Source: a virus. Taken from it: a DNA stretch of 64,000 nt. The stretch is taken from the IMG/VR virus record IMGVR_UViG_3300005739_000002, positions 34,019 through 98,018 of that record. The stretch is one strand, 5' to 3'. This document shows, piece by piece, positions 35,899-52,500 of the stretch. Each line of letters starts with the position of its first letter. Positions within the stretch are counted from its first letter, which is position 1. The translations under genes and the position numbers were made by a program. Under the pieces are notes generated by a model. It ran no database searches and was not told the DNA's origin. It saw nothing but the letters and a program-made list of their open reading frames with translations.

Positions 35899-36369
35899 GT
35901 GGCAATACTTGTATTTATGGATGAGGTTATGCGTAACCACAAAAAGCATCCAATCGTAGAGGGCTTGGCCTTTTATAAAACTTTAAAAGAAAAGCACCGC
36001 GTACTTATCCTTTGTGAAGATAAAGATAAAGCAGACCACTGGCTTAGACAACAGCGCATTAATAATTACGACGATTTAGTAGCGCTTGAGGATGTTCCAT
36101 TTCCAGGTGACAATCCAAAACTTAGACATGTGGAGTGGGTACGTTCTCAGGGACCCGTAGAGTATGTAATTACGTCAGACCCAGACCTAGCAGTTAAACT
36201 ATTGGTCAGGGGTATAACAACTATAATGTTCCTTCACCCTATCTATACCAATGAAAACTTCCGACCAGATGGCCTAAAGCGTGGGTTCAAACCATGGGCG
36301 CAGATACAGGACGAACTAATAAGACAGCAGGACGAGTACGATAACGACCAGCGTAGAGACCGTATCTGA
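35899..36369 (+). CDS. HAD-like fold protein (degenerate)
   Basis: N-terminal ILVFMDEV, PIVEG, VEYVITSDP resemble HAD motifs I and IV. Confidence 0.45.
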   Translation: MAILVFMDEVMRNHKKHPIVEGLAFYKTLKEKHRVLILCEDKDKADHWLRQQRINNYDDLVALEDVPFPGDNPKLRHVEWVRSQGPVEYVITSDPDLAVKLLVRGITTIMFLHPIYTNENFRPDGLKRGFKPWAQIQDELIRQQDEYDNDQRRDRI

Positions 36370-37814
36370 TGCGTATTGTTTATATGGGATGTGAGGTCCC
36401 CAGCAATAGGACTTTGCTGGAAACTACAACAGCAAACCACCTTGGAGTGAGCTTTCAGGGTTTAGTACGTAGAGGCCTTCCAAAGACAAAAGAATATATA
36501 TTTGATAACTATTTCCCCAAGGATTCCTATATTTATCTATACCCAGGACTACCCCTGAATGCCAAGCTGGGCCGCCTGGAGCTAGAGGAGTTTGCAGCTG
36601 CCTATGAGCACTTTGTAGCCATAAATATAGATAGATTAACTTTATTTGCAGAACTTAATTATGGATTTGTGGACCCAGCCTTTGTAGAGCAACAGCGCAA
36701 AACAGCTTGGGCTTCAGTCCCACCTGGCAAGTTTTTACCAGTCTGGAACCCAGACTTAGGTTTAGATAACCTCAATAGGCTTATAAATAATTATTTAGAT
36801 ATAGGAATACCAGGGGCATCCATAGAGTCAGAGACCAGGCTAGCCGCCACCACCAGAACCGCCACCAAACGTCAGGGAACCAGATTCCATGCATTAGGTT
36901 GCGCCAAGCCAGATAACCTTCGTTCAATACAAGCGGAGACCGCCCACACCCTTTCATGGCTATCGCCCATGACGCATGGTGAGACAATCGTCTGGGATGG
37001 TACTAGGCTTGCTAGATACCCAAAGCGTATGAAAGAACAGGCAAGAGCCCGTTACAATCATATTTACGAGAAGGCTGGCTTGGACGCCGACCTTATCGCA
37101 GAGGATGACCCAAAAGAAGTTTGCCGTCTGGCAGTGTGGTCATATGAACGATTCGAAGAGAGGATTAACAAGGTGGGCGAGTCTTATTATCAGGATGAGG
37201 AAGGTCAGCCAAATACGGAAATTGCACCCTTGGATGCTGATAATAAGGGTATGGAAATGCGGAAACTTTCACCACGCAATCCTGATGAAATTCGCAATCT
37301 TCCAGTGTTTGGATACGATGTTAAGACAGATGTAGACGCTGATGGTGTCATCTCAGATAACACCCATGTAACTTCACAGGCAAGCACCCTACGTCAGTGC
37401 GACACCTGCTTTGTAGCGGCTAACTGCCCTGCTTTTAAACCGCAATCTATGTGTGCTTTTAAGTTACCGATAGAGGTAAAGAGTAAAGAACAACTTAAGA
37501 GTCTTATCAATGCAATCATAGAAATGCAGGGCCAAAGGGTTGCTTTCATGCGTTTTAGCGAAGAAATGAACGGTGGATATGCAGACCCTAACGTATCCCA
37601 AGAGATAGACCGCTTGTTTAAATTAATCAAAACCGTCAAGGAACTAGACGATTCCAGAGAGTTTATTCGCATGACTGTAGAGCGTCAGGGCTCGGCAGGA
37701 GTGCTATCTTCCATCTTTGGAGATAGGGCCCAAGTGCTTAAAGAACTGCCTGATGGTGGGCTTACAGAGGCAGAAACTACGGAGGTAATACGCAAAACTA
37801 TAGAAGATAAGTAG
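36369..37814 (+). CDS. hypothetical protein: TGT/DpdA-like barrel remnant plus Cys4 C-terminal domain
   Basis: FLPVW, RFHALG..TAHTLSW resemble the HxLG..SxDSxSW motif; CDTC..CP..C. Confidence 0.4.
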   Translation: MRIVYMGCEVPSNRTLLETTTANHLGVSFQGLVRRGLPKTKEYIFDNYFPKDSYIYLYPGLPLNAKLGRLELEEFAAAYEHFVAINIDRLTLFAELNYGFVDPAFVEQQRKTAWASVPPGKFLPVWNPDLGLDNLNRLINNYLDIGIPGASIESETRLAATTRTATKRQGTRFHALGCAKPDNLRSIQAETAHTLSWLSPMTHGETIVWDGTRLARYPKRMKEQARARYNHIYEKAGLDADLIAEDDPKEVCRLAVWSYERFEERINKVGESYYQDEEGQPNTEIAPLDADNKGMEMRKLSPRNPDEIRNLPVFGYDVKTDVDADGVISDNTHVTSQASTLRQCDTCFVAANCPAFKPQSMCAFKLPIEVKSKEQLKSLINAIIEMQGQRVAFMRFSEEMNGGYADPNVSQEIDRLFKLIKTVKELDDSREFIRMTVERQGSAGVLSSIFGDRAQVLKELPDGGLTEAETTEVIRKTIEDK

Positions 37815-37923: not shown

Positions 37924-39957
37924 ATGCCATTATCTTTCAGATTTACAGAGGACTTCCTTAAGGAATATCGCAACAAGAAGGTACCTTGGGGATATAGGGA
38001 TGCGGGTGGCAACTCCGTTGGAGAAGTTACTTTCTTACGCACCTACTCTCGACTGAAAGAGGACGGCACTAAAGAGACTTGGGTAGATGTTTGCCAGCGA
38101 GTTATTGAGGGTATGTATTCCCTACAAAAAGACCACTGCAAAACCAATCGACTTCCTTGGAATGACTCCCGAGCTCAGGCTTCTGCTAAAGAGGCCTTTG
38201 ACCGCTTGTTTAATTTAAAGTGGACCCCACCAGGACGCGGTCTATGGGTTATGGGAACTCCCCTGGTCAATGAGCTCAAGAACTCTGCGGCTTTACAGAA
38301 CTGCGCCTTCGTGTCCACTGCCAGTATGACAAAGTTAGACCCCGCTAAACCATTTGCATTTTTAATGGAAGCGTCTATGTTGGGCGTAGGTGTCGGGTTT
38401 GATGACAAGGGTGCTGATAAAGACTTCACTATCTATGACCCACATCCAGATACCGACCCAATCGTCATCCCAGATACTCGAGAGGGGTGGGTTGAATCTG
38501 TAAGTTTGCTCATCAACTCCTATTTAATGCCCGATAAGAAGTCGCCTATATTTGACTATAGCGCTATCCGCCCTGCTGGTGTCCCAATTAAGACGTTTGG
38601 AGGCACGGCGGCTGGGCCAGAGCCACTGGTCAGGCTGCATGATTACATCCGTAACATATTTAAAGGTAGGGCTACTCAAAAGTTAACTAGGGTAGATATT
38701 GCGGATATAGGTAATTTAATAGGAGTCTGCGTGGTGTCTGGCAATGTGCGCCGCAGCGCTGAGCTACTCATGGGTAGATTAGACGATAAAGACTTCTTAA
38801 ATTTAAAGAACGCAAAGGTCTACCCTGAGCGTAACTCCTACGATGCATCCAACCCTGGTTGGGCCTGGATGTCTAATAATTCTGTAGAGGTTTCTGTCGG
38901 CTCTAATTTAGAAAACATAGTTGAGGGTATTGCTCTCAACGGGGAGCCTGGTGTTATCTGGATGGACGTTACTCGCAAGTACGGCCGTCTTATTGACCCG
39001 CCTAATAATAAAGACCATAGAGCCGCAGGTTATAACCCCTGCGCTGAGCAGTCCCTAGAGTCGTTTGAGTGCTGTACGTTGGTAGAAACCTACCTTAATC
39101 GTGCTGAATCTAAAGAAGATTACCTTCGTACTCTAAAGTTTGCTTATCTATATGCTAAGACTGTCACCTTGCTTCCTACTCACTGGGAAGAAACAAATGC
39201 GATTATGCAAAGGAACCGTCGTATTGGAACCTCTATGTCTGGTGTGGCTAACTTCGCTGATAGGGTTGGCATGCCTGTGCTTCGTGAGTGGATGGACGAG
39301 GGTTATCAGACAATACAAGACTACGATAAAACCTACTCTGAGTGGTTAGGTATCCGCGAATCTATTAAGACTACTACTGTAAAGCCTAGTGGCACGGTTT
39401 CTATATTAGCGGGAGAGTCTCCTGGAGTTCACTGGACTCCTGGTGGGAAGCACTTCCTTCGCGCTATCCGCTTTTCTAATGAAGACCCAATGCTACCTTT
39501 GTTTAAAGCGTCAGGTTATAAAATAGAAAAGGCTTCTGAATCACCAAAGACAACTAGCGTTGTTTATTTCCCGATTGAGAGCCAAGCCCTACGTTCAGAA
39601 AAAGATGTTTCTATATTTGAAAAGATGTCTTTAGCGGCTACCGCCCAGAGGCATTGGTCAGACAACAGCGTAAGCGTTACAGTATCCTTTAATTCAAATA
39701 CAGAAAAAGACGCCGTAGGAACCGTACTGCACATGTTTGACGGACAGCTCAAAACCGTTTCCTTCTTGCCTATGGGGAACGAGACCTATCCGCAAATGCC
39801 ATATACGCAAATAACTAAAGAAGAATACGATAAATACACATTTAAATTGCTTCCCATTGATTTTACTGATGTCTATGCGGGGATGGCCGCGGATGCTATT
39901 GGTGAGAAGTATTGCACTACAGACGCTTGTGAAGTAAGCTTTACTAAAATAGATTAG
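37924..39957 (+). CDS. nrdJ: class II (AdoCbl-dependent) ribonucleotide reductase
   Basis: PPGRGLW, ALQNCAF, GNVRRSAE, NPCAEQ, TTVKPSGTVS, C-terminal CTTDAC. Confidence 0.95.
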   Translation: MPLSFRFTEDFLKEYRNKKVPWGYRDAGGNSVGEVTFLRTYSRLKEDGTKETWVDVCQRVIEGMYSLQKDHCKTNRLPWNDSRAQASAKEAFDRLFNLKWTPPGRGLWVMGTPLVNELKNSAALQNCAFVSTASMTKLDPAKPFAFLMEASMLGVGVGFDDKGADKDFTIYDPHPDTDPIVIPDTREGWVESVSLLINSYLMPDKKSPIFDYSAIRPAGVPIKTFGGTAAGPEPLVRLHDYIRNIFKGRATQKLTRVDIADIGNLIGVCVVSGNVRRSAELLMGRLDDKDFLNLKNAKVYPERNSYDASNPGWAWMSNNSVEVSVGSNLENIVEGIALNGEPGVIWMDVTRKYGRLIDPPNNKDHRAAGYNPCAEQSLESFECCTLVETYLNRAESKEDYLRTLKFAYLYAKTVTLLPTHWEETNAIMQRNRRIGTSMSGVANFADRVGMPVLREWMDEGYQTIQDYDKTYSEWLGIRESIKTTTVKPSGTVSILAGESPGVHWTPGGKHFLRAIRFSNEDPMLPLFKASGYKIEKASESPKTTSVVYFPIESQALRSEKDVSIFEKMSLAATAQRHWSDNSVSVTVSFNSNTEKDAVGTVLHMFDGQLKTVSFLPMGNETYPQMPYTQITKEEYDKYTFKLLPIDFTDVYAGMAADAIGEKYCTTDACEVSFTKID

Positions 39958-39971
39958 GAGAAAAATTTAAT

Positions 39972-40214
39972 ATGAATCCAACAATATATACAAAACCAGA
40001 CTGCCCAGCATGCGACGCGACTAAAAAATACTTTAGTAAATACAATGTCGAGTATGTATCCGTTGATATTACGGAAAATGACGAGGCTCTAAACCTTATT
40101 AAATCTTTAGGGTATAACTACACGCCAGTAGTGGTGGTAAATGAATCTAACCATTGGCAGGGCTTTCGACCAGATAAAATTGCGTCATTAAAAACAATTA
40201 AACATGCTATTTAA
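39972..40214 (+). CDS. nrdH: NrdH-like glutaredoxin
   Basis: YTKPDCPAC.ATK, PVVV, WQGFRPDKI; follows RNR. Confidence 0.9.
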   Translation: MNPTIYTKPDCPACDATKKYFSKYNVEYVSVDITENDEALNLIKSLGYNYTPVVVVNESNHWQGFRPDKIASLKTIKHAI

Positions 40215-40476
40215 TAATAAAGCCTCTTGTGAAGGTCTTGAATCTGACATATTTTTTCCAGACGAAGCCAGTCACTATCAGTATTTATCAACAGTTAAAA
40301 AAATGTGTGATAATTGTTCAGCAAAATTAGAGTGCTTTGATTATGCTATAGAAAACGCGGTTCAGGGTATATGGGCAGGAACCACCTTTAATGAACGAGA
40401 CGCGTACAGACTAAAACATGGAATAGTCGCTAAAGGCGTTGTGCCAAATAATTTAGTTTACGACCATATCGCTTAA
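40204..40476 (+). CDS. whiB: second WhiB-family transcription factor
   Basis: C..FFP..CDNC..C..GIWAGTT..ER. Confidence 0.85.
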   Translation: MLFNNKASCEGLESDIFFPDEASHYQYLSTVKKMCDNCSAKLECFDYAIENAVQGIWAGTTFNERDAYRLKHGIVAKGVVPNNLVYDHIA

Positions 40477-40483
40477 TTAAATA

Positions 40484-40525
40484 AGAAAGCCCCACGTGTC
40501 AAAGCATAAGCACGTGGGGCTCTCT
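40484..40525. terminator. hairpin at convergence of + and - transcription units
   Basis: GAAAGCCCCACGTG..CACGTGGGGCTCTC. Confidence 0.7.
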
Positions 40526-40624
40526 CATTCCCGAGGAAGGCGCAGGTCTATCTCAGGCGAAGGGGTGCCTTCATGGATAGCCTTGGCGGGAGAGATAAGG
40601 AAACCGCCTTAACGCCGTTAAAAA

Positions 40625-40771
40625 CTAACATGAACCGCATTTAGTATCTACCCTTATATTTCTTTTATCTACGACTAACATACGACCACAATGATAGCAC
40701 GCTACGTACTTTACTTTGCTATTACGTTTATAAAGTTTAACTAGCGCTTCTAAATTAAGTTTAGTCGTCAT
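40625..40771 (-). CDS. small zinc-ribbon protein (48 aa, not in ORF track)
   Basis: MTTKLNL..CYHCG..CGSC; translated by hand. Confidence 0.5.
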   Translation of the reverse strand: MTTKLNLEALVKLYKRNSKVKYVACYHCGRMLVVDKRNIRVDTKCGSC

Positions 40772-40859
40772 CTTCTTCGTCCTCTTCAAATACGTCCTCG
40801 TCCTCTATATGGGGCATAGGTCTCTCCCACATAGGTTCGGGGATAATCGGGTTACTCAC
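40761..40859 (-). CDS. small acidic peptide (32 aa)
   Basis: VSNPIIPEPMWERPMPHIEDEDVFEEDEEDDD; overlap-coupled on both sides. Confidence 0.45.
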   Translation of the reverse strand: MSNPIIPEPMWERPMPHIEDEDVFEEDEEDDD

Positions 40860-41167
40860 GCGTTACTCTCTTGTTTATAGATTAGAGTGCCCTGAATTCT
40901 TACAGGCTTCTCGCTCTCATCAATAGAGGTGACCTCTAGTTTAATAGACTTGCGAGGCGTGAGTTGTTGGACTCTCTCTTTAATATAACGCTTACCTGCG
41001 CTGGCGTTAGACCATGCGGTTACGTTGTTATCAATTTCGATTTCGTCATATCCACCTAAGCCGTTACTGCGTAATTCGGTAATGGTGTAAGTGACTTTCC
41101 ATGCGCCACCCTTTACAGGGTTCTTTGCGAGCGTGGCTTTAAACGTACGCTCTACTTTTCTAGCCAT
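40856..41167 (-). CDS. hypothetical protein
   Basis: SD AAGGAG; operon packing. Confidence 0.6.
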   Translation of the reverse strand: MARKVERTFKATLAKNPVKGGAWKVTYTITELRSNGLGGYDEIEIDNNVTAWSNASAGKRYIKERVQQLTPRKSIKLEVTSIDESEKPVRIQGTLIYKQESNA

Positions 41168-41588
41168 TTAAGTTCTCCTTCGTAATAGGCCAATGGTAAG
41201 GCAGGGTTTCATCTACTAATGGGAAGTGTATCCTATAGTATTCGGGCAATTTTCGCACTAGGTTGGCTTGGTGCGATATATGTATGCGCTCGTCGCCTAA
41301 CCATGCTGGCATATCGGGCGCGGGTTTGTGTTGGAAGTGCTGGATAAGATTATCGTTGTAACCGCGACGTATCCACTCTAGGCATATCTCTCTCCCATAT
41401 AGTTTGAGAGCGTCAAGGTTATCTCTCCACATCAGCACCGCAGGGTGATTACGCCATGCGTTACTTTGTTGGGTACCGTCTAATACTCTTACTATTTGAT
41501 AAGCCTCTACACGTTGCTTACCTAGACGTTTATAATCTAATACGCGAGCGACTTCTGTAAAGTCTGCGTATGGTAGGAAAGTTTGCGT
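41160..41588 (-). CDS. pyrimidine-dimer DNA glycosylase / MSMEG_6728-like protein, apparent ACG start
   Basis: frame extends upstream of the track call: (ACG)QTFLPYADF..LDYKRLGKQRVEAYQI..WRNHPAVLMW..P.WLG..H.SHQANL.RK..Y.WP; AAGGAG 6 nt before ACG. Confidence 0.85.
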   Translation of the reverse strand, partial: TQTFLPYADFTEVARVLDYKRLGKQRVEAYQIVRVLDGTQQSNAWRNHPAVLMWRDNLDALKLYGREICLEWIRRGYNDNLIQHFQHKPAPDMPAWLGDERIHISHQANLVRKLPEYYRIHFPLVDETLPYHWPITKENLNG

Positions 41589-41598
41589 AACTCTCTCC

Positions 41599-41871
41599 TT
41601 ACGCTACGGGTTGATATTCGTATGGTAAATCTTTTACCTGTATTGGCACTAGTCCGTCGGTGCTATCGAAGTATAAACCTTTTAAGTCGTCCTCTACACC
41701 TGCGTCTAGGTGGCACGACTCCACTACTGGGTCGCTCTCATCTGAACCTATCCACGCAAGGGCTTCGGCTTCTGTATCGAATAGTTGTACGTCGTAGTAC
41801 GAATAGCCTTTGGGTTCATCGTTATCATCAACGAATACGGCTTTTATTACCCATTTCTCTTTGTAGTCCAT
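41599..41871 (-). CDS. acidic hypothetical protein
   Basis: GA-rich SD; stop codon overlaps SD of the next gene. Confidence 0.55.
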   Translation of the reverse strand: MDYKEKWVIKAVFVDDNDEPKGYSYYDVQLFDTEAEALAWIGSDESDPVVESCHLDAGVEDDLKGLYFDSTDGLVPIQVKDLPYEYQPVA

Positions 41872-41887
41872 ATCTCTCTCTCATTTA

Positions 41888-42034
41888 TTAAACGGTTGCT
41901 GGATTACCTGCTGGTGGTACGCACATTACGCAGAATCCTAGACCTATCTCGCTGGCTTCGTCAAGGGCTTCTGTATCAATGGGCACGATTACTTCCCCGT
42001 TGTCGTACTCGATAAAGCATTTAGCGCACCGCAT
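41888..42034 (-). CDS. small Cys-pair protein (48 aa)
   Basis: MRCAKC..CVMC; SD AGGAGAGAG. Confidence 0.5.
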   Translation of the reverse strand: MRCAKCFIEYDNGEVIVPIDTEALDEASEIGLGFCVMCVPPAGNPATV

Positions 42035-42045
42035 ATCTCTCTCTC

Positions 42046-42186
42046 CTACTTCTCTATTCCATATTTATCTAAACACTCGTCGCACATCTTACCGTGGCAA
42101 GCGCAGATAACTTCTGGATTATCCTCAGAATCTACGCCTGGAATCGTGCCGCGTAAATCCATCTGGGCATTTTTGTTACTACTCAC
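42046..42186 (-). CDS. small Cys-rich protein (46 aa)
   Basis: GTGA coupling; CACH..CDEC. Confidence 0.45.
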   Translation of the reverse strand: MSSNKNAQMDLRGTIPGVDSEDNPEVICACHGKMCDECLDKYGIEK

Positions 42187-42581
42187 TCTTTCTCTACTTC
42201 CTCATTTGTTTCTTGGGTTTCTAACTTTAACTCTGTGCCGTAACCCTGATATATAACTTTACCGTCGGCGTCGGTAACCGTTACGACATCACGGTCGCTG
42301 GTGATGAATTGGTGAAGGTGGTGACTCTCCACGATAGCCTCTACGGTTGCGTGGGTGCTTCCCTTGTAGGTGGTACCTTCGGGTAGTAATACTTGGGTCT
42401 GCCACTCGCCTTTATTAGCGTATTCGATAGCCCTAATACACACGTCGGTCATGCTAATCGGTACGGGTGGGTAGTGGTTGTTGGATAGGTGGAAGGCTAC
42501 TAACTTCCAATAATCGTTGGGTTCTTCTGTGAGGTCTGTATCCTCTACGAGTTCCGCGTCGATAATCTCATTGTTCTCCAT
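42183..42581 (-). CDS. hypothetical protein
   Basis: HLSNNHYPPVP..IVESHHL. Confidence 0.6.
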   Translation of the reverse strand: MENNEIIDAELVEDTDLTEEPNDYWKLVAFHLSNNHYPPVPISMTDVCIRAIEYANKGEWQTQVLLPEGTTYKGSTHATVEAIVESHHLHQFITSDRDVVTVTDADGKVIYQGYGTELKLETQETNEEVEKE

Positions 42582-42708
42582 TTAAGTCCTTATCTTTATA
42601 TTTAACTTTCCTAGTGTATCGCTTTTTATTAGTTAGAGGTACTGAAGCATTACTACGCCGTAACTCAAGGATACGGCGTAGTTGCTCTCTTGTCTTTGAT
42701 AGGCGCAT
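42568..42708 (-). CDS. small basic protein (46 aa)
   Basis: MRLSKTREQLRRILELRRSNAS..KKRYTRK; TAATG coupling. Confidence 0.5.
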   Translation of the reverse strand: MRLSKTREQLRRILELRRSNASVPLTNKKRYTRKVKYKDKDLNGEQ

Positions 42709-43019
42709 TAAATACCGTCTAGTCCGTACCCGTTCTCCATGTCGCGTGCGTCGGCTTCGTCAAGGATAGGCGCTCTTAGTCCTAATCTGTCCATGTCGGC
42801 TTCGATACTGTCGATAGCCTCATCTATCTCACCGCGTACTTCGTGGTAGTCGAAGTAACTTTCTAGTCGTTCGTCGCCGTGGCTACGCAGTACGCATAGG
42901 TCTAACGAAGCGCCAATAGCGGTGTCTAATAGGTGAATAGCGCTTGGGTCGCCATTTATATATTTAAGTACGAGGTCGTTATATTGACCTGTCTTAGGTA
43001 GAAAGTTTGTGCTGGTCAT
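42708..43019 (-). CDS. hypothetical protein
   Basis: ATGA coupling. Confidence 0.55.
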   Translation of the reverse strand: MTSTNFLPKTGQYNDLVLKYINGDPSAIHLLDTAIGASLDLCVLRSHGDERLESYFDYHEVRGEIDEAIDSIEADMDRLGLRAPILDEADARDMENGYGLDGI

Positions 43020-43180
43020 TTGCTCACGTCCTCTAGGTAGAATAGGTAGTCACCTATAGTTATTAGTAAGTTTATTAGATACTCGTCGGTTGCGTTGTGT
43101 GCTTTGACGTGACCCTGCGCTTGGGCTAGTAGGTCGCGTACTCGTTCTTTATAATCTATTGCTTCTGTTGCTATATCCAT
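43016..43180 (-). CDS. small hypothetical protein (54 aa)
   Basis: MDIATEAIDYKERVRDLL...; translated by hand. Confidence 0.45.
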   Translation of the reverse strand: MDIATEAIDYKERVRDLLAQAQGHVKAHNATDEYLINLLITIGDYLFYLEDVSK

Positions 43181-43263
43181 ATTTGTTTATCCATTTCTGT
43201 ATTTAAGTCGGAATCCCCTGCCCCGTAGCGCTTACCACGGGGCGGAGAATCCGAACGCTTGTT

Positions 43264-45132
43264 CTAGTGACGGGCGCTCATGGTCGCCTTCACTATGTCC
43301 TTCGCTAACTTCACCATGTCGGTTGGTTCCGCAATATCGCGGAAGTGCTTTGCGCCATGACGATAGCGTGCGACGGCTTTGTCGTACGCTTCTTTATCGC
43401 TATTCCAACGACGTAGGTCGTCGAGATATACGACGGCGGTCTGTACGCCGTCGGCGTTAAGGTCGGAGATTACCTTATCATTTTCCTCGGTCATATCCCA
43501 CTCGCCGTCGGTTACGATAAATAGCATACGCACGCCACGGCGACTAGATAGTAGGTGGCGTCGCGCTTCTAATAAGGCTTTGTAAGGATTAGTACCACCT
43601 GACGTATTGACGAAGCGGTATTCGGTAGGTTGCGCTTTGTCTGCCTGTGAGTAGATAAGCCTACTATCGTGGTTAAACTTATAGACCGCGACGCGACCGT
43701 TGATACGCTCGATACCGCGCTTGATAATCCATGCGCTTTCCATAACACGCTGAATCTGCCACGCCATACTGCCCGAAGTATCTACTAGGACTATTGCGTC
43801 TATGTCGTTGTTGCTATTGCCTTCGTGCCAACGGTCGAACACTTTGTCCATGTCGTTAATATCGGCACGCATGGCGCGACCTATATTTAAGCGACCCTCA
43901 GGTTGCTCTAATTGCCACGCAGGGTCGTTATCTATACGCACGCGCTCTAGGGCTACGGCGAAGGCGCGAGCGCTCGCAGATACTCTAGGGCTAACGGCTT
44001 GGTTGGAATAGTTACCTTGTTTAATAGCACTACGACGGTCACGGTTATCGTTAATAGCCTTACGGACTTCTTTAGCAGACCGTAATACTTCGTCGTTCTT
44101 GTTAAGGCTATCTAACCGTTCCTTAATATCTTTGCGTAGCACGTTATCGTCGGCTTCGTCCTTACCCTTGTTATCGAACGAACGGCTTGAGTTATCGTTA
44201 TCAGTATCGGTATCGGCAGGGTCTTTCATATCCTCAGTACCGCTACCTGCCTCGTCCTTGTTAGCCTTATTCTGTTGGGCTTCCTGTTCACGGTTACCCT
44301 TCATGCGACCCTTATCTTGTACGTCGCGGTCGCCGTGTCCATGTCCGTCCTTAGGAAGCATAGGCACGCCGTCCTTCTCGTTCACTTCGTCGCGTCCTAC
44401 TATGTCGGCTAATAGTCTTATTAACTCTAGTCCTCGGTCATAGTCGCGTGGGAATACGAGCGTGCGATACTCATGGATAATCAGCGCTAACGTCATGGCT
44501 ATATCTTTACCGAAGTGCTTTATAAATCTATCTGCGATTTCCTGACGTAACTCTATATCTAAATACTTACGACCCGTGATAAGTGGGAAGTAACTAGCGT
44601 ATTCCTCGGACTTACCCTTGAGTAAATACTCTAGGCATGACGCTTCTAAGAAAGGCGCAACGGACGGATACTTAGCGATAAGTAGCCGTTCGATACGGGC
44701 GTCCTCTAAGCAGTTATAGGCGTGTTGTAACCTCTCGGCTCTAATAGTCTTGCCAAACTCGCTACCGCTTCTAGGTGAATAAAGGACGTGGGCGACTTCA
44801 TGGTAATTAAATCCGTTGAGGGAGATAATAGTCCTATCGTCCACTTCCTCTAATAGGTGGGCGTTAAACACGATATTTTTACCGTCGTTATAGGCGGTGG
44901 TATCCATTTCAGGATTATCCTCAACGCGTACCTCTACGGGTTCTGCCGTGAGGATACGGTCGGTGCGACCATAGACCGCACCGACCGCCTGTAATTTGTT
45001 GATATGTTCCTCGATACGCTCGGCTTCTGCCTCTGCGTCAAACTCAGTATCACGATAGTTACCGTAACGTACCTGTGCGATAAGGTTATCCATAAGGTCG
45101 TTATGGTTATCGAACGCTTTGCGTGAGGACAT
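43264..45132 (-). CDS. vWA-domain protein with N-terminal HExxH (CobT-like) domain
   Basis: HEVAH, NCLEDARIE, MIDAS DTSGS, GGT, VTDG. Confidence 0.85.
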   Translation of the reverse strand: MSSRKAFDNHNDLMDNLIAQVRYGNYRDTEFDAEAEAERIEEHINKLQAVGAVYGRTDRILTAEPVEVRVEDNPEMDTTAYNDGKNIVFNAHLLEEVDDRTIISLNGFNYHEVAHVLYSPRSGSEFGKTIRAERLQHAYNCLEDARIERLLIAKYPSVAPFLEASCLEYLLKGKSEEYASYFPLITGRKYLDIELRQEIADRFIKHFGKDIAMTLALIIHEYRTLVFPRDYDRGLELIRLLADIVGRDEVNEKDGVPMLPKDGHGHGDRDVQDKGRMKGNREQEAQQNKANKDEAGSGTEDMKDPADTDTDNDNSSRSFDNKGKDEADDNVLRKDIKERLDSLNKNDEVLRSAKEVRKAINDNRDRRSAIKQGNYSNQAVSPRVSASARAFAVALERVRIDNDPAWQLEQPEGRLNIGRAMRADINDMDKVFDRWHEGNSNNDIDAIVLVDTSGSMAWQIQRVMESAWIIKRGIERINGRVAVYKFNHDSRLIYSQADKAQPTEYRFVNTSGGTNPYKALLEARRHLLSSRRGVRMLFIVTDGEWDMTEENDKVISDLNADGVQTAVVYLDDLRRWNSDKEAYDKAVARYRHGAKHFRDIAEPTDMVKLAKDIVKATMSARH

Positions 45133-46679
45133 TAGACACCTTCCGAGATAGTGTTATTAAGTGCGTTGAGTACGCCATTAAATACGGGGTGAACGTTGCT
45201 TACGTTGTTCACGTCAGGAGTGGAATCTGCTGTGGCAGTTTCCATGCCTTCGACTACTGCGCCTACTTCTGTATTTAATATGGCTTGTTCGGTATTTGTA
45301 TTGCCGAAGGTAGCCTTATTAGCAGTAACTTCCAACCCGAAATCAGTAGCGATATTGTCGCGGTGGGTTGTGAGTAATAGCCTTACTGCGCTACGTTCCT
45401 CATCACCCTCGAAGGAGTTGATATAGCAGTAGGACGCGAAGTCCATGCCTAGCGCCTTAGCGTTATCTGCGAAGGCTACGAGATTACGGGTTGAGATAGG
45501 GGTGTTGATAGTACCCTTATTAAACTCGTCGCGTAGTTGGTTCGCCATAACTAATAGGGCTTTGCTACCAATTAACTTCTGTTCGATAGCATTATCGTAT
45601 GGGAATACTAGACGCTCAGGGAAGCGGTCGGCGAGCGCCTGATTTAGTGGGCGTGTGCCTCGGTAATCGGGGTTCATGTCTGCCACGATAAGTAGGTCGG
45701 GGTGCGCTTTGATAACCTCGCCACCGTTCTCGAGTAACTGAATCTCACGGCGATAATCTAATAGGCTAAAGATAAAGGTGAGAAACCGCTCAGGTGCGAA
45801 GTTAATTTCGTTAAATAGGAGTACGCCACCATTACGGACGATTTCAGTAACGGCGCCGTCCTGCCACCTAAAGTGTCCGTCGGGAGTAGGAATCCAACGA
45901 CCGACTAGGTGTGACGCCTCAAGCCCGATATGGCATGCGACGTTAAAGTAGCGGTAGCCCCTAGCGGAAGCGTACGCCTGTACCATAGCGGTCTTACCGC
46001 TACCTGCGTGACCCTCGATAAGGACATTTTTCTTAGACGCCATAGCGTAATCCATAATCTCGAAGTCGGTTAGACCGCCTACGACCTTACGGTTGATATA
46101 CGCCTTAGCGAACGCCTTGTCGGGTACGGTCACCATAGCGGTTACGAGGTCACTACTAGCCTTATTACTCATGGCTTCGATAGTGGTTGGTCGCACCTCG
46201 ATAGGCTCGACGGTCGTGGAAGCCACGGTCGCCGAAAATTGAGGTACACCGTTAATAGGCTTGAGAGATAGACCCTGTGAGCGTCGCTTATCTGTGACGT
46301 ATTCAGAGAGGGTGGAATCCCCACTAATAAGCCTGTCGCGTAACCCTTCTACGGTGAAGTCGTGAGCGACGGGTGTGATAGGTGCGGTTGCGCTTTCTAA
46401 CGCATATAACGCCTTAATACCGACGTTAGTGATTTGACCCATGCCTAGCATTACTAGGTCGCGGTCGCTAAGTACGACCGCCACGGGAGTATGAGAGATA
46501 GGGTTAGTAGGTAGGTTGGTCGGGCGTTGCCATGCCTGTCCTCTACCCTTCGCCCCATTAGATACGCGGTGGTACGTCTGTACCTCGGTATCGGTGCCTA
46601 TGAGTAGGGTCTGCGCTTGAGCAGGTTCCCCCTCTAATATGGCGTCACTCACTACGAGTAACGCGAGGTGTGAAGTCAT
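45132..46679 (-). CDS. MoxR/CobS-like AAA+ ATPase
   Basis: GHAGSGKT, WQDG, LLFNEINF, MNPDYRGTRPLNQALADRF, ISTR; start placed at ATG 46679 with SD AAGGGG. Confidence 0.9.
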   Translation of the reverse strand: MTSHLALLVVSDAILEGEPAQAQTLLIGTDTEVQTYHRVSNGAKGRGQAWQRPTNLPTNPISHTPVAVVLSDRDLVMLGMGQITNVGIKALYALESATAPITPVAHDFTVEGLRDRLISGDSTLSEYVTDKRRSQGLSLKPINGVPQFSATVASTTVEPIEVRPTTIEAMSNKASSDLVTAMVTVPDKAFAKAYINRKVVGGLTDFEIMDYAMASKKNVLIEGHAGSGKTAMVQAYASARGYRYFNVACHIGLEASHLVGRWIPTPDGHFRWQDGAVTEIVRNGGVLLFNEINFAPERFLTFIFSLLDYRREIQLLENGGEVIKAHPDLLIVADMNPDYRGTRPLNQALADRFPERLVFPYDNAIEQKLIGSKALLVMANQLRDEFNKGTINTPISTRNLVAFADNAKALGMDFASYCYINSFEGDEERSAVRLLLTTHRDNIATDFGLEVTANKATFGNTNTEQAILNTEVGAVVEGMETATADSTPDVNNVSNVHPVFNGVLNALNNTISEGV

Positions 46680-46762
46680 AAGACCCCTTCGTATGGGTGG
46701 CGGTGTTGCCACGCCCCGAGCCTACCCTATTTCCGTATTTAAGTATCTCTCCTTCTCCAATT

Positions 46763-46781
46763 CTCAGGAAGTTATCCACAA
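46763..46781. promoter_or_regulatory. extended DnaA box 1
   Basis: CTCAGGAAG-TTATCCACA (46772-46780). Confidence 0.8.
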
Positions 46782-46911
46782 CCCCCTATCCTGATAACTC
46801 TCTGCGATAAGGCTATTAAATCTGGCCGTCCACCCACTCACTTAATACGGCTATTAAGCAGTAGCCTTCTCTCTCTCTCCTATCACGGCCGACGGCTTTT
46901 GGCAACTCTCT

Positions 46912-46930
46912 CTCAGGAACTTATCCACAG
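46912..46930. promoter_or_regulatory. extended DnaA box 2
   Basis: CTCAGGAAC-TTATCCACA (46921-46929). Confidence 0.8.
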
Positions 46931-46931
46931 G

Positions 46932-47073
46932 GTTTGTGTTGGCTCAAGGCTTGCAGCGTTGAGCCAATAGCAATGACCGCCATTTCTATATTAGAAATGG
47001 CGACATTTAGGGTGGGTACGAGTATTTCGGTATAATTTAATACCGAAATACGAGAGGGTGGGCCAACACAAAC
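46932..47073. repeat. cassette-boundary palindrome, type C (multi-hairpin)
   Basis: GTTTGTGTTGGC..GCCAACACAAAC enclosing CGCCATTTCTA/TAGAAATGGCG and GTATTTCGGTAT/ATACCGAAATAC hairpins. Confidence 0.8.
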
Positions 47074-47130
47074 TTTCCCGCAGCGGCAGCAGAGCCGTGA
47101 TTTGGTCTCCACGGTCTCCACCTCACCACC

Positions 47131-47175
47131 AAAAAGCCCTACTAGATGGCATCCTGCCTGTCTAATAGGGCTTTC
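47131..47175 (-). terminator. intrinsic terminator
   Basis: AAAAAGCCCTA.TAGA..TCTA.TAGGGCTTT, U-tract on minus strand. Confidence 0.65.
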
Positions 47176-47190
47176 TAGGGGGTATGTCCG

Positions 47191-47676
47191 CTAGCAGATT
47201 TCGAATCCACCGCTATCTGCTAAGAACTCTGCGAACTCTCGTACGTTCTCTGTTGAGAAGGGATAGTGTTTCTCCCAAGGTTCCTTCTCACGGGTTCCAT
47301 TACACGAATTACACGGGTCACGGAACTTTACAACGCCTTCTTCATAGTCAGGCCACTCAGGTTTTACCTGAACAATACCCATACCGTCACAGAAGTCGCA
47401 TTTTACATTTGGTAGGCTTTCTAAATAAGCCTTGTATTCCTTCTCATAGGCTTCACATGAGCCGTCTGATAGTTTTATCATAAGGACTTGTGATAGGAGT
47501 TCTGCGCCTTCGGCGCCTAACCCGTCACCGTCGTTGTAGTGCCCACTCACACCATTGACTAGGTCAGGTGCTACACGCTCTACATAATCCCATAGTGGTC
47601 GCCACCACCATACATTATTACGGAAGTACTCCCCTTTCTCGGATTTGGGAGCCTTACCATACACGTCCATACCCAT
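47191..47676 (-). CDS. hypothetical protein with DnaJ-like CxxCxGxG zinc finger
   Basis: MGMDVYG..YFRNNVWWWRPLW; CDFCDGMG, CNSCNGT; SD GAGGT. Confidence 0.7.
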   Translation of the reverse strand: MGMDVYGKAPKSEKGEYFRNNVWWWRPLWDYVERVAPDLVNGVSGHYNDGDGLGAEGAELLSQVLMIKLSDGSCEAYEKEYKAYLESLPNVKCDFCDGMGIVQVKPEWPDYEEGVVKFRDPCNSCNGTREKEPWEKHYPFSTENVREFAEFLADSGGFEIC

Positions 47677-47677
47677 A

Positions 47678-48199
47678 CTACTTACCTCGCTTTCTTTTCT
47701 TACCACCCAATAAGTCCTCGATAGTCATATCTAATAGGGCTATTGGGTCTTCTTTTTCGGCGGCCTCTACGATAGGCGTATTAGGGCGAAGGATTATTAG
47801 CAGGTCGTCAGGTGTATCCAACTCTAACTGATGTAGAAACTTGGCGTAAGTTCCCATTAGCATAGCCATTGGAGTAAAGGCGCCTACTACCCACGCTACA
47901 TGGATAGCCATGCTTGCCGTAGATAGGTCGTCGTCTGTGACTTCCTCGTCGTTCGCAACCTTATCAGCAAGAGTCGAGAAGCCTGTGTTGGCGAGCGCAT
48001 TTATCATATTGCCAATAAACGCCTCGTCCTCACGCATTTTGACCGCCTGTGCCATGATAGCGGTCTTTAGGTTGCCGTCTGATAAGCCTTTCGTACCGTC
48101 AGGCAACTTAGGGTCATACATATCGTTATCAGGGTCGCCCATAAGTTCTATAGACGACATAATCTCAGTAAAGCGCACCTTGCGCTCGCTACTGTTCAT
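47678..48199 (-). CDS. hypothetical protein
   Basis: first gene of cassette; SD AAGGGGG. Confidence 0.65.
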   Translation of the reverse strand: MNSSERKVRFTEIMSSIELMGDPDNDMYDPKLPDGTKGLSDGNLKTAIMAQAVKMREDEAFIGNMINALANTGFSTLADKVANDEEVTDDDLSTASMAIHVAWVVGAFTPMAMLMGTYAKFLHQLELDTPDDLLIILRPNTPIVEAAEKEDPIALLDMTIEDLLGGKKRKRGK

Positions 48200-48263
48200 T
48201 TACTACCCCCTTTGATAGGTGGCGCAACTCTACTCTCACTCTCCGTCATATAGCCATAACACT

Positions 48264-48282
48264 CTCAGAAACTTATCCACAG
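48264..48282. promoter_or_regulatory. extended DnaA box 3
   Basis: CTCAGAAAC-TTATCCACA (48273-48281); TAGAGT -10 40 nt downstream on minus strand. Confidence 0.8.
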
Positions 48283-48299
48283 GCCATCTCTCAAGCCTA

Positions 48300-48397
48300 T
48301 TTTGTTTGTGCTGGGGGCTTTTGGGCATAGGTGGGTTGAAAACCGTACCTATGCAGAGATAGCTACTTATTACCAAAAGCCCCCAGCACAAACAAAA
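48300..48397. repeat. cassette-boundary palindrome, type A
   Basis: 25-bp perfect arms TTTTGTTTGTGCTGGGGGCTTTTGG / complement; inner GCATAGGT/ACCTATGC; bulge GATAGCTACTTATTA. Confidence 0.9.
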
Positions 48398-48425
48398 AGG
48401 CCGCGAGGGAAGTCGCGGCCTTCTT
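48394..48425 (-). terminator. intrinsic terminator whose U-tract is the palindrome arm
   Basis: AAAAAGGCCGCGA..TCGCGGCCTT. Confidence 0.75.
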
Positions 48426-48442
48426 ATGACTAGGGGAAGAGT

Positions 48443-48925
48443 CTAGTCTTGTTCCTCTGCAGAGAACTCAAGATTGCTGATGATATCGCCGTCATCATAA
48501 TCAACCTCAACTGAATCAGAGGTACGTCCTTCGCCGTCGTATTCGATATCGAATGTTAGGCGTGCATTGTGAATGCTAAGGTTATCTTCTACTTCTGCGA
48601 TAGCGTCTTCCTCGGTATCGGCTTTTACATCAGTTACCTCTAGAATGTTTTCATAGAGGTAGGAAACCGTAACAGTCCAAGTACGGATTAGTGTGTCGAG
48701 GGTAGGCCATGAAACAGAGCCAACCTTCTCAGCGATAGCGTTGTATATCTCAAGGCCTTGCGCCTCGGTAACAACCTCGTTAGTAACCTTATCTCTTAGT
48801 ACATCTAAGGTTATAGTGTTGATAATGCCAACTGATTTCTCATGTTGGTTGTGACGTGTGGCAAAGACTTCGTTGTCTACCTCTTCTTTGGTATAAACTG
48901 TCTCACCGTTTATCGTATGTGACAT
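48443..48925 (-). CDS. acidic hypothetical protein
   Basis: single-gene cassette. Confidence 0.65.
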   Translation of the reverse strand: MSHTINGETVYTKEEVDNEVFATRHNQHEKSVGIINTITLDVLRDKVTNEVVTEAQGLEIYNAIAEKVGSVSWPTLDTLIRTWTVTVSYLYENILEVTDVKADTEEDAIAEVEDNLSIHNARLTFDIEYDGEGRTSDSVEVDYDDGDIISNLEFSAEEQD

Positions 48926-49001
48926 TTTCTCTCTTCCCGTAGACGCACCTTGCGCCCACGGGTCGAGTCTAATATAACTCTTTTTACAGGTCTCTCACGC
49001 T

Positions 49002-49020
49002 CACAGGAAGTTATCCACAG
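49002..49020. promoter_or_regulatory. extended DnaA box 4
   Basis: CACAGGAAG-TTATCCACA (49011-49019); TAGACT -10 39 nt downstream on minus strand. Confidence 0.8.
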
Positions 49021-49040
49021 GCTCTCTCCTAGCCCTATTA

Positions 49041-49130
49041 TGTTTGTGCTGGGCTTGCTGGTATAGGCAGTGATGATAATCCGTACCTATACCGTGATAG
49101 CTACTTATTACAGCAAGCCCAGCACAAACA
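49041..49130. repeat. cassette-boundary palindrome, type A
   Basis: 20-bp perfect arms TGTTTGTGCTGGGCTTGCTG / complement; inner GTATAGG/CCTATAC; bulge GATAGCTACTTATTA. Confidence 0.9.
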
Positions 49131-49157
49131 AAAGCCCCCGCATCTCTGCGGGGGCTT
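49130..49157 (-). terminator. intrinsic terminator
   Basis: AAAAGCCCCCGCA..TGCGGGGGCTT. Confidence 0.75.
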
Positions 49158-49169
49158 CGTAGTCTTATC

Positions 49170-49565
49170 TTAGAGCCATTGTGATACAGACTTATAGAGG
49201 CTCGCAGGAACATCAGGTTGTGCGGTCATACCTAGCAACTTGATAGTCTTACGGAGTTCCTCGTAATCGTTATCGTTGAACATGCCGTCAGGGCGGTCAG
49301 GGCGTTCTACCTGAGTAGGCAGTTTATCCTTATCTACCTTGAACTCAATTTCCAAAATACCATTCCACGAACGATAGTTAGTGTTATGGATTTCTAACTT
49401 ACCTGACTTTGCCAATGCGATAATCTTACTAGCAAAGGCTTCTTGTGCTTTGTTGTATTTTTCCTCTGCCTTCTTGTAGTCGGCACGGAACTTGTCTTGC
49501 TCGGCTAATCTGCCGTTTAGTGCGTCTAATAGGACTAGCCTATCTACTTTGATGGTTGTAGCCAT
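49170..49565 (-). CDS. hypothetical coiled-coil protein
   Basis: purine-rich SD; followed by terminator. Confidence 0.65.
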   Translation of the reverse strand: MATTIKVDRLVLLDALNGRLAEQDKFRADYKKAEEKYNKAQEAFASKIIALAKSGKLEIHNTNYRSWNGILEIEFKVDKDKLPTQVERPDRPDGMFNDNDYEELRKTIKLLGMTAQPDVPASLYKSVSQWL

Positions 49566-49592
49566 CTACCTTCCCTTTCTTATAGTTGTTGG

Positions 49593-49797
49593 TGAGCAGT
49601 TGTTCTACGACATACTCAGGTCGTTAGGATTACGCAGGTTTGCACCTACTATCCCCCTAACCCTAACGGGGTCTTGCCCTTTATTTTTCTAATCGTTGGC
49701 TACGATTACCCTTCCGTTCGGCGGTTCGCCTACTAGGCGGGATACTGATAAGCCTTTTATCCACTTGCTCAGGTGGTTCTCACGGGGGGTGAGAAAG
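49593..49797 (-). ncRNA. candidate structured RNA/leader with two compact pseudoknots
   Basis: CCAC-CTGAGCAA-GTGG..GGCTTA and ACGAC-CTGAGTAT-GTCGT..CTGCTCA; GCAA tetraloop hairpin between them. Confidence 0.5.
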
Positions 49798-50220
49798 TCA
49801 GAGTAGGTCTTTATCTACGCTGAAAAGGTCTTTTAGTGTGTTGAGTTGTTTAGCGTATTTGCGGGCTAGTGCCTTGTAGTAATCACGCTCGGCTTCTAAG
49901 TCCGAGATTAGTTTATCTACTTTGCTAATAGCCTTATCGGTAGTCATGCGCTCTGAACGCTTTGTGTATTTGCGTTTAGTGCGTTTGATAGCGTTAGCAG
50001 GATTATGTGTCCCTACATGTATGGACATCTGTGCCCTTGTTGGGGTCATGTGTCCGCAGATTTGGCAACCGAACATAGTTGTTCCGTCTAGCCATAGCAG
50101 TTCCACCATGTTGTGGAAGTAATGTCCCTTTGCCATTGGATTAGGCACGGGTTGGGATTGTAAAGGTGCGATGTTATTTCGCAAGAACTTTTGTTTGATA
50201 GTATCACCCCCCTCGTTCAT
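49798..50220 (-). CDS. C2H2-like zinc-finger protein (start uncertain)
   Basis: CQICG..H...H followed by basic segment and coiled coil. Confidence 0.6.
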   Translation of the reverse strand: MNEGGDTIKQKFLRNNIAPLQSQPVPNPMAKGHYFHNMVELLWLDGTTMFGCQICGHMTPTRAQMSIHVGTHNPANAIKRTKRKYTKRSERMTTDKAISKVDKLISDLEAERDYYKALARKYAKQLNTLKDLFSVDKDLL

Positions 50221-50337
50221 CTCTTTAGTGTTGCTCCTTTAGGAGTTGGTCGGCGACCATGTTGCTCTCCCTTCGTTAGTGTGGGCTTGTTCCCACTGAC
50301 TTATTCAACCATAATCTCAATAATCTATTTCATGGCA

Positions 50338-50356
50338 CTCAGGAAGTTATCCACAG
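50338..50356. promoter_or_regulatory. extended DnaA box 5
   Basis: CTCAGGAAG-TTATCCACA (50347-50355). Confidence 0.8.
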
Positions 50357-50369
50357 GTATCTCGTAAGG

Positions 50370-50449
50370 TTGTTTGTGTCGGGGCTTATGGGTGCATATA
50401 TCTATATAGCACCCGTAACACACACGCCCATAAGCCCCGACACAAACAA
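50370..50449. repeat. cassette-boundary palindrome, type B
   Basis: 23-bp perfect arms TTGTTTGTGTCGGGGCTTATGGG / complement; inner TATATAGC and ACACACGCCC. Confidence 0.9.
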
Positions 50450-50475
50450 AAAGCCCCGCCTTTCGGCGGGGCTCC
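50448..50475 (-). terminator. intrinsic terminator
   Basis: AAAAAGCCCCGCC-TTTC-GGCGGGGCT (GAAA tetraloop on minus strand). Confidence 0.8.
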
Positions 50476-50487
50476 TTGTTAGGCTTG

Positions 50488-51498
50488 TTAGACGCCAGCC
50501 AATTCGCGGACGGCGCGGAGTATGCGCCCCTTCTCGGCATTGACCACTGGGTCAAAGCCACTTGCCGCGCCCTTGAGCGCCTCGCCATTGGCGGTGCGAC
50601 CAGTGCGGAAATAGTCAATGCGCTCAGTGAGAGCATTGAGAGCGCCCCAATAGGTGCCCTTGATTGTTGATTGCGTAGGGGATACATGGTAAATATCCTC
50701 TAGGAGGTCGCGCTTAGCCTGCCACTTGGTCATAACTTGTGGCGCAACCGCATTGGCGTCGGGTTGCGGATAAATGGCATTGACCAATTTATCCCAATCC
50801 GCATTGGAGAGAGGAGCCTCGAAAAGAGACTTTGCGATGGACTCAAAAGAATCCATGTGAGCGAAGGTGAGACCTAGCACGCGACGCGCTTCCGCAATGC
50901 GACCCTCGACCTTGAGAGTGTGGCGCAACTTGAATGATTGCTTACATCCAGCCAGCGCCATGTTGAGCGTATTTTGGCAGACAACACGAACGGGCGTGAT
51001 TGACGCTTGAACGCTTGCGCTCCCGTCATGGGAGGTATGAACGAGCAGATAGGTGAGAGTCTTATCATTCGCCCCTTGAGGGTCGATGATGAACTCACGA
51101 GGAACGACAAGGCTACCGAAAACAACCTTGCCATTCTTGATTGAGCCAGCAGATTCCCAACTGGCGCCCCCGTCGAGAATGTTATCCCCGAATGTGAAAA
51201 GTTCCTCATTCTGGAATACGCGATAACGCTTACCGACAACCGCGAGGACATCGGTTCCAGCGTCGAACGGATTGGTGCGAACGACCATGTGAAGGTCGGT
51301 CTTTGAGCGATAGCCAGCGGGATACTGGACATCCTCTAGGCGAACATTCCAGTTCGCTAACTTTGCCGAATCCAACATGACATCGGTTGTCACATGTTCA
51401 TCAGCAGAAAAGATACGATTGGCGAGACCATGCCATGCGGGAGCGCCACGCAATGCGAACGCCACCTCACCGCCTTGAATCTCTAAATCGTGAGCCAT
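50488..51498 (-). CDS. DUF932 / TIGR03299-type phage-plasmid protein
   Basis: MAH..PAWHGL, Y..FQN, ESAGS..G, SHDGS, TPVRVVCQNTL, RHT, GT.WGA.NA.TE..D. Confidence 0.9.
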   Translation of the reverse strand: MAHDLEIQGGEVAFALRGAPAWHGLANRIFSADEHVTTDVMLDSAKLANWNVRLEDVQYPAGYRSKTDLHMVVRTNPFDAGTDVLAVVGKRYRVFQNEELFTFGDNILDGGASWESAGSIKNGKVVFGSLVVPREFIIDPQGANDKTLTYLLVHTSHDGSASVQASITPVRVVCQNTLNMALAGCKQSFKLRHTLKVEGRIAEARRVLGLTFAHMDSFESIAKSLFEAPLSNADWDKLVNAIYPQPDANAVAPQVMTKWQAKRDLLEDIYHVSPTQSTIKGTYWGALNALTERIDYFRTGRTANGEALKGAASGFDPVVNAEKGRILRAVRELAGV

Positions 51499-51571
51499 AA
51501 CAGCCCCCTTCTATGCGAGACCTTCTCGCATGCGCTCACCCTATCAGATACATCTCTCAACCCTATTAGTT

Positions 51572-51590
51572 CTCAGAAAGTTATCCACAG
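51572..51590. promoter_or_regulatory. extended DnaA box 6
   Basis: CTCAGAAAG-TTATCCACA (51581-51589); TAGGGT -10 37 nt downstream on minus strand. Confidence 0.8.
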
Positions 51591-51596
51591 GGCGCG

Positions 51597-51686
51597 ATGT
51601 TTGTGTTGGGCTGCTTATGTGTGTATATGAAGATATATAGCGAAATGTTTATACACACACGCCCATAAGCAGCCCAACACAAACAT
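51597..51686. repeat. cassette-boundary palindrome, type B
   Basis: 23-bp perfect arms ATGTTTGTGTTGGGCTGCTTATG / complement; inner TGTGTATA/TATACACA, TATATAGC, ACACACGCCC. Confidence 0.9.
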
Positions 51687-51691
51687 TCTTC

Positions 51692-51705
51692 GTTTCACGT
51701 GAAAC
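51692..51705. promoter_or_regulatory. parS: parS centromere-like site (ParB-binding consensus)
   Basis: perfect intergenic palindrome GTTTCACGTGAAAC, 15/16 match to TGTTTCACGTGAAACA. Confidence 0.8.
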
Positions 51706-51738
51706 AAAAAGGCCCGAGCGGGAAGGTGCTCGGGCCTC
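51706..51738 (-). terminator. intrinsic terminator
   Basis: AAAAAGGCCCGAGC..GCTCGGGCCT. Confidence 0.75.
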
Positions 51739-51758
51739 TTCGTAGGGGGTTTATAACC

Positions 51759-52058: not shown

Positions 52059-52249
52059 GCGTCCTCCCTTGTACTGTGCCAGTAATCGGCCGCGGCTTCT
52101 GCCCTGTCCGCGTAATCCTGCTCACCCTCACTGTAACCCTTGAGGTAACCTGATATCTTGCCAGACCTGTAGGCGAAGAATCCGACAACAAGAGCAACGA
52201 GGATGTCAACGAGTAAGTTGAAACCGTTATAGAAGATGATTTCATTCAC
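52055..52249 (-). CDS. small membrane protein
   Basis: one TM segment then GY..GY..G; GTGA coupling at 52249. Confidence 0.55.
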   Translation of the reverse strand: MNEIIFYNGFNLLVDILVALVVGFFAYRSGKISGYLKGYSEGEQDYADRAEAAADYWHSTREDA

Positions 52250-52477: not shown

Positions 52478-52500
52478 GCAAACTCTCCTCCTATAACTCC

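Follow-up and report, generated by a model that had tools for sequence, protein, structure and literature searches.

The question raised by this locus is why a phage gene for a predicted DNA-repair enzyme should carry ACG at the position where its protein family has the initiator methionine. The window, by which we mean the whole stretch of DNA analysed (64,000 nucleotides; positions 34,019 to 98,018 of the IMG/VR record IMGVR_UViG_3300005739_000002), belongs to the 98,018-bp circular assembly of a freshwater phage, the contig ends of which overlap by 55 nt. The coding sequence for an endonuclease-V-like pyrimidine-dimer glycosylase occupies 41160..41588 on the minus strand (142 codons plus stop), and the proposed initiation codon ACG (41586..41588, minus strand) is preceded at a 6-nt spacing by the Shine-Dalgarno (SD) sequence AAGGAG (41594..41599, minus strand), so that the junction reads TAA-GGAG-AGAGTT-ACG-CAA-ACT-TTC-CTA-CCA-TAC. 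The TAA is the stop (41601..41599) of an upstream 90-aa ORF (41599..41871, minus strand); it abuts the SD and lies 10 nt before the ACG, and on the other side a downstream 103-aa ORF of the same operon (40856..41167, minus strand) has an 8-nt overlap with the glycosylase stop. The in-frame codons before ACG are TAG CGT AAG GAG AGA GTT, and no ATG, GTG or TTG exists in the glycosylase frame between the upstream in-frame stop and the ACG. Because the first canonical in-frame start is the GTG of codon 51 (41436..41438, minus strand), the ORF list begins the gene at 41438 and gives 92 aa instead of 142.

A first-pass annotation of the window, made from the letters alone, had read the junction as AAGGAG-N6-ACG CAA ACT TTC CTA CCA TAC, called the gene UV-repair glycosylase-like, placed the family start at MQTFLPY and put the truncation in the ORF track at 50 codons. 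The reading is exact on the minus strand, the codon count is right, and the identification is borne out by profile matches above cut-off. The protein matches NCBIfam NF038085 (the MSMEG_6728 family) with 148.3 bits (cut-off 100, E 1.5e-43, profile positions 2-148 of 149) and Pfam PF03013 (Pyr_excise) with 81.1 bits (cut-off 23, profile positions 2-76 of 81, protein residues 2-80). Since these matches start at position 2, the ACG corresponds to position 1 of the family, Met1, and the N-terminus of the product is the MQTFLPY of the MSMEG_6728 subfamily. Gln is residue 2 in 118 of the 123 distinct relatives, and across 62 sequences T3, F4, P6 and E28 are invariant and Q2 nearly so. An AF2 model built on 62 relatives (pLDDT 92.6) was superposed by VIA-align, from residue 1, on T4 endonuclease V (1enk/2end) with a Z of 8.8 and an rmsd of 3.0-3.4 Å over 99-103 residues, the next unrelated match reaching Z 4.2. 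The clear endonuclease V match came from VIA-align only, the Foldseek E-values for the same model being not significant; a PDB sequence search with the glycosylase gave no relevant match, the GenBank phage collection yielded no match at the DNA level, and protein matches there stay below 50% identity. By homology the gene is a full-length DNA glycosylase of the T4 endonuclease V type, the activity of which has not been shown; a catalytic role for E28, T3, F4 and P6 is an inference, and the glycosylase/AP-lyase activity itself is likewise untested.

The explanation that we favour lies in the surroundings of the gene. The whole genome holds 387 TGCA sites and not one of them falls between 39917 and 46951, a zone of 7,035 bp within a gap of 7,039 bp that is the largest in the 98-kb genome (next largest 1,655 bp) and wider than the 40.5-46.9 kb for which the first-pass annotation had reported the absence of TGCA; only 8 sites occur in the 7 kb following it. 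Judged by the rest of the genome this zone should contain 29.9 sites (Poisson 1e-13); its own trinucleotides predict 14.8, while synonymous-codon shuffles of its own genes yield 9.9±2.7 sites with a minimum of 2, and 0/500 reach zero. TGCA is under-represented here beyond what composition and codon usage account for. No second start codon with the same fate as that of the glycosylase turned up when the zone was searched; a close relative has just one further ATG-CAA, which encodes a Met-Gln inside a protein, and at that place this genome has Ala-Gln.

In such a zone a gene whose product begins with Met-Gln meets a particular difficulty. As had been pointed out in the first-pass annotation, a canonical start followed by a Gln codon spells the site; NTG-CAR always does, and it can therefore be removed only by dropping the canonical start or by recoding. 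The N-terminus can neither move nor change, because Gln2 is fixed, Met has a single codon, and the N-terminal amine of T4 endonuclease V is the catalytic nucleophile. The gene sits in a block purged of TGCA and its ACG would be a result of that purge; relatives that purge TGCA would have met the same problem with ATT and, in one case, with a recoded MVN N-terminus. The purge would most likely come from host restriction enzymes selecting on a vulnerable block, probably one that is early or first exposed. We give a probability of roughly 0.7 to the reading that this is a functional glycosylase initiated at ACG because TGCA was purged from the block, likely under restriction, with restriction as the selective agent, and the enzyme concerned, being inferred.

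Further observations bear on what kind of purge this is. The whole genome is plus-strand except for an opposite-strand block at ~40.6-53 kb, and in this phage site avoidance is confined to one genome block, the TGCA-free zone being also nearly free of AGCT, GCWGC, GGWCC, CCWGG, GGATG, GCATC and GGCC. When window positions 39917-54090 were compared with loci L001-L029 and L081-L111, the purge of this same core set from the opposite-strand block was found to be common to every syntenic relative, and individual lineages have added purges of their own: ACGT in L019, L029 and L011, GTAC in L003, L013, L019, L029 and L011, and CATG in L013. The TGCA purge was likewise added in individual lineages and is not part of the core set. 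We propose that the palindrome purge is limited to a block and variable between lineages because changing host restriction repertoires act on the part exposed before protection. It could nonetheless be argued that TGCA was lost for a reason unrelated to restriction, as the target of a phage nuclease or of DNA modification or as a regulatory or structural motif; the purge would then have cost the gene its canonical start all the same. Room for such a cause is left by the restriction of the purge to one block while GATC and CCGG are missing genome-wide, by the DpdA-like base-exchange gene of the phage and by the lack of any known restriction enzyme in the host; on the other hand, the co-purged motifs are short palindromes plus GGATG and GCATC, which are classic Type II and IIS specificities, and the variation of the purged set by lineage, with TGCA, ACGT, GTAC and CATG as additions, is what would be seen for changing host restriction repertoires. 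A cause other than restriction is hence regarded as unlikely, without being set aside.

Several features of the block and of the genome are recorded here as observations in their own right. GATC and CCGG have zero occurrences in the whole 98-kb genome, although the window by itself would be expected to contain ~175 and ~91, and both are also missing from nearly all syntenic relatives. The DpdA-like gene (window 36369-37814, plus strand; phrog_887, E 3.9e-50), a homologue of queuine tRNA-ribosyltransferase, adjoins ribonucleotide reductase and may point to 7-deazaguanine DNA modification. Genes for an NrdH-like glutaredoxin and a WhiB-type regulator (window 39972-40476, plus strand) stand at the edge of the purged zone, and the WhiB gene suggests an actinobacterial host. 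The two large genes of the purged zone (window 43264-46712, minus strand) code for an ATPase of the AAA_5 type (MoxR/CobS-like) and for a protein with a VWA domain; the VWA gene is followed by a terminator-like hairpin (window 43203-43268, minus strand), the stem of which has three TGCA sites in L001 and is rebuilt from other bases in the window with pairing kept. Outside the window, G000:C1:14001-18000 holds 65 GGWCC sites in 4 kb vs ~3 per 2 kb elsewhere, a cluster that is probably a repeat inside a large structural gene.

The reading that the TGCA purge cost the gene its canonical start was examined across relatives, for which 160 relative-encoding loci were fetched of more than 800 matched, leaving 123 distinct ones. 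Their start codons are ATG (85), GTG (16), TTG (5), ATT (14) and ACG (2), plus one recoded locus that reads ATG-GTT-AAT and has the N-terminus MVN. If a locus counts as TGCA-free nearby when the 800 nt to each side of its start contain no further TGCA, all 16 ATT or ACG loci and the MVN locus qualify (17, being 14 ATT, 2 ACG and 1 MVN), as opposed to only 6 of the 102 canonical NTG-CAR loci (Fisher odds ratio 68, p 1.6e-12, with the caution that the rows are related and not independent). Most of the ATT, ACG and MVN loci have zero TGCA for more than 5 kb upstream, two ATT loci (L067 and L069) have 0 in 12 kb, and TGCA-free spans reach a median of 6,433 nt for loci without the start TGCA vs 732 nt for canonical ones. 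No ATT or ACG start was found among the 123 in a locus of normal TGCA density, where ATG, GTG or TTG stands instead; the window's closest relatives (L001, L003, L006-8) are of this kind, with normal TGCA density and an ATG or GTG start.

The dependence between rows was addressed with a well-resolved tree of ribonucleotide reductase (RNR) from the syntenic phages, on which the start trait changes 8 times and 5/5 independent pairs on supported branches behave as predicted. A sixth pair from another phage group, L067/L069 (ATT) vs their sisters L042/L066 (ATG), points in the predicted direction, and 6/6 contrasts correspond to a two-sided sign test of 0.031, the contrasts being few (5 to 6). The short glycosylase tree gives independent pairs of 4:0 (p 0.125) and is underpowered, and the RNR-based tree was used instead; searching with the L067 protein for more members of its clade brought only 6 new loci, all canonical and of normal TGCA density. 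The association across relatives is an observation, and it is in these figures, 16/16 and 6:0, that the first-pass inference of avoidance having selected a non-canonical start finds its support, the restriction enzyme remaining inferred.

The association is not strictly one-to-one. The first-pass annotation had proposed setting the start codons of orthologues against their TGCA content, and this comparison did not refute its inference, ATT and ACG being met only in TGCA-free contexts; exceptions on the other side are five relatives (L013, L099, L103, L020 and L098) that keep GTG or TTG followed by CAG despite a strongly TGCA-depleted zone. In L013 no TGCA besides that of the start occurs for more than 6 kb upstream or for 474 nt downstream; judged from its position, the start TGCA looks like the last site standing, a pattern to be expected if it is the hardest site to remove. 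L081 keeps ACG though it is TGCA-free only from -1083 to +1162 (2.2 kb), and its similarity to the window is highest in exactly that TGCA-free stretch. The similarity profile suggests a recombined patch; the strict one-to-one link is weakened nonetheless.

The same survey bears on the possibility that a weak start was selected to keep a DNA-nicking glycosylase at a low or regulated level, in the manner of infC AUU, which serves IF3 autoregulation, and that the link with TGCA is incidental. ATT and ACG are indeed poor starts, and the weaker GTG or TTG opens the gene in 21 of the 123 relatives, from which it appears that low expression is tolerated. However, relatives with normal TGCA have zero ATT or ACG, the 16/16 loci with these codons are TGCA-free nearby, the 6/6 independent contrasts agree with the purge, and the SDs that accompany non-canonical starts are stronger, which is the opposite of tuning down: the median pairing energy is -8.9 kcal/mol for ATT/ACG vs -5.65 for canonical starts (p about 1e-4), and the SD duplex of the window is among the strongest of the set. 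We regard selection for low expression as an improbable account of the ACG.

The purge explanation presupposes that the ACG is genuine and that the codons after it are translated. The TAAGGAGAGAGTT-ACG-CAA module is identical in two metagenome contigs, L081 and L109, which have 85% and 88% nt identity to the window respectively. Over codons 2-50 the three ACG-bearing copies show dN/dS values of 0.08, 0.06 and 0.077 at a dS of 0.65-1.2, the same dN/dS as in the rest of the gene, and it follows from these low values that those 49 codons are read as protein in the ACG lineages. The ACG is also covered by Logan contigs of three studies, one of these contigs being ~96% identical to the window, and among the differences listed for them there is no change at 41586-41588; these are contigs and not reads. 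The first-pass annotation had named an assembly error and a pseudogene as what would overturn its inference, and neither is met with in these comparisons, in which no raw reads were available. As far as can be judged from assembled sequence, the ACG is neither a sequencing error nor the mark of a dead gene. As a separate observation, positions 41601 and 41905 are linked in one contig of run X5 by 14 letters of different sequence; this variant is without the upstream 90-aa ORF, and its match ends at 41601, so that the SD-ACG junction is included.

A recent disabling mutation, with the gene in decay or translated solely as the 92-aa product that begins at GTG 41438, would fit the facts that gene callers see only the 92-aa ORF and that E. 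coli initiates only very weakly at ACG (bioRxiv 10.1101/063800). It fits poorly with three ACG copies separated by a dS of 0.65-1.2 that have kept the frame intact and a dN/dS of 0.06-0.08 in the 49 codons before the GTG, and the 92-aa piece would be left without E28, which is invariant, and without the greater part of the Pyr_excise domain; such decay is thus considered very doubtful. An assembly or sequencing error, an N-terminus supplied by frameshifting from the upstream ORF or a C-to-U editing of the mRNA is scarcely credible, for although the evidence comes from contigs only and not from raw reads, the same ACG stands in independent, diverged contigs and goes without a listed change in the contigs of three studies, and frameshifting is rejected on the frame layout, in which the TAA of the upstream ORF lies in a different frame and the glycosylase-frame TAG is separated from the ACG by no more than 15 nt, which contain no slippery site, the upstream genes being moreover different in the ATT relatives.

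With the purge retained as the reason for the ACG, the manner in which such a codon could serve remains a matter of inference, as does its efficiency. Translation would begin at the ACG through initiator tRNA on a near-cognate codon, probably helped by the strong AAGGAG at 6-nt spacing. The TAAGGAG arrangement, in which the stop abuts the SD, recurs in ATT and ACG relatives, and this position of the upstream TAA suggests translational coupling, again by inference. A hairpin is predicted around the start in the mRNA (41566..41604, minus strand), in which the SD belongs to the 5' arm and pairs with codons 3-6 on the 3' side, so that the start codon falls in the apical loop (ACGCA); the 90-nt fold that holds it has a z of -4.84, and similar pairing is predicted in several relatives, without a functional test. 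This SD-holding hairpin may be opened by ribosomes that finish the upstream ORF at its TAA, 10 nt from the ACG. In E. coli, ACG initiates with an N-terminal Met at ~0.1-1% of AUG and AUU at 1-2% (bioRxiv 10.1101/063800). As ACG is a very poor start there, the enzyme is probably made at a low level, and by analogy with these E. coli figures, with neither an RNA run listed for the region nor proteomics as direct evidence of translation, it may perhaps be made only in traces.

Overall, the locus offers a natural experiment on the strength of selection against a single 4-bp site in a phage, in which selection accepts a start working at ~1% or less of AUG in E. coli, with 5 to 6 independent contrasts to go by. 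To the start codons of phage genes it contributes a rare natural ACG together with a group of ATT, and it explains a systematic gene-calling error by which 50 codons are cut from the gene. A testable rule can also be stated, namely that Met-Gln and Met-His N-termini are incompatible with TGCA avoidance, and it predicts non-canonical or recoded starts at the Met-Gln and Met-His genes of TGCA-free phages.

With regard to known systems, the protein shares with T4 endonuclease V (DenV, PDB 2END/1ENK) the same fold (Z 8.8), the same Pfam family and an alignment of the N-termini; it differs in having only ~17% identity to it, in belonging to the MSMEG_6728 subfamily with the MQTFLPY N-terminus, and in its untested activity. 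Among natural non-canonical starts, the AUU of E. coli infC and pcnB (bioRxiv 10.1101/063800) resembles the phage codon in being a near-cognate codon after a good SD, in being conserved in orthologues and in that both would initiate with Met. The difference is that the apparent cause in the phage is a constraint at the DNA level and that ACG, with its second-position mismatch, is absent from the natural starts listed in that work (bioRxiv 10.1101/063800).

In T5, restriction sites matter only in the block exposed before counter-defence is expressed (PMC10644984), and the likeness to its first-step-transfer region is that here too one block alone is purged of many sites. Two-step injection, a terminal position and a pre-early counter-defence, as in T5, have not been shown for this phage, whose assembly is circular and whose block is recognised by strand and composition alone. 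That in this family of freshwater phages the ~7-13-kb opposite-strand block is the sole restriction-exposed part of the genome, T5-like, under selection strict enough to set aside the start-codon rule again and again, with ACG and ATT made workable by the combination of stop, SD and hairpin through termination-coupled initiation, is put forward as a tentative possibility that we would not expect to hold in full.

Avoidance, non-canonical starts and endonuclease-V-like glycosylases are each known, and the link from avoidance to the start codon was not found in the literature, our search having returned no paper that connects restriction avoidance with start-codon choice. Restriction-site avoidance in phage genomes was reportedly described by Sharp in 1986. 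It has been described as site counts and codon usage (PMC6286503, PMC8410138), and our case is like the known one (Rusinov et al. 2018, PMC6286503) in the strong and statistically clear loss of short palindromes and in purged sets that differ between lineages. The comparative evidence supports the conclusion that the start-codon rule has repeatedly given way, to ACG and to ATT, where a probable restriction site was being avoided, and it is here that this block departs from the avoidance described in those papers: a site that could be removed only non-synonymously was removed by giving up the canonical start, and this on more than one occasion.
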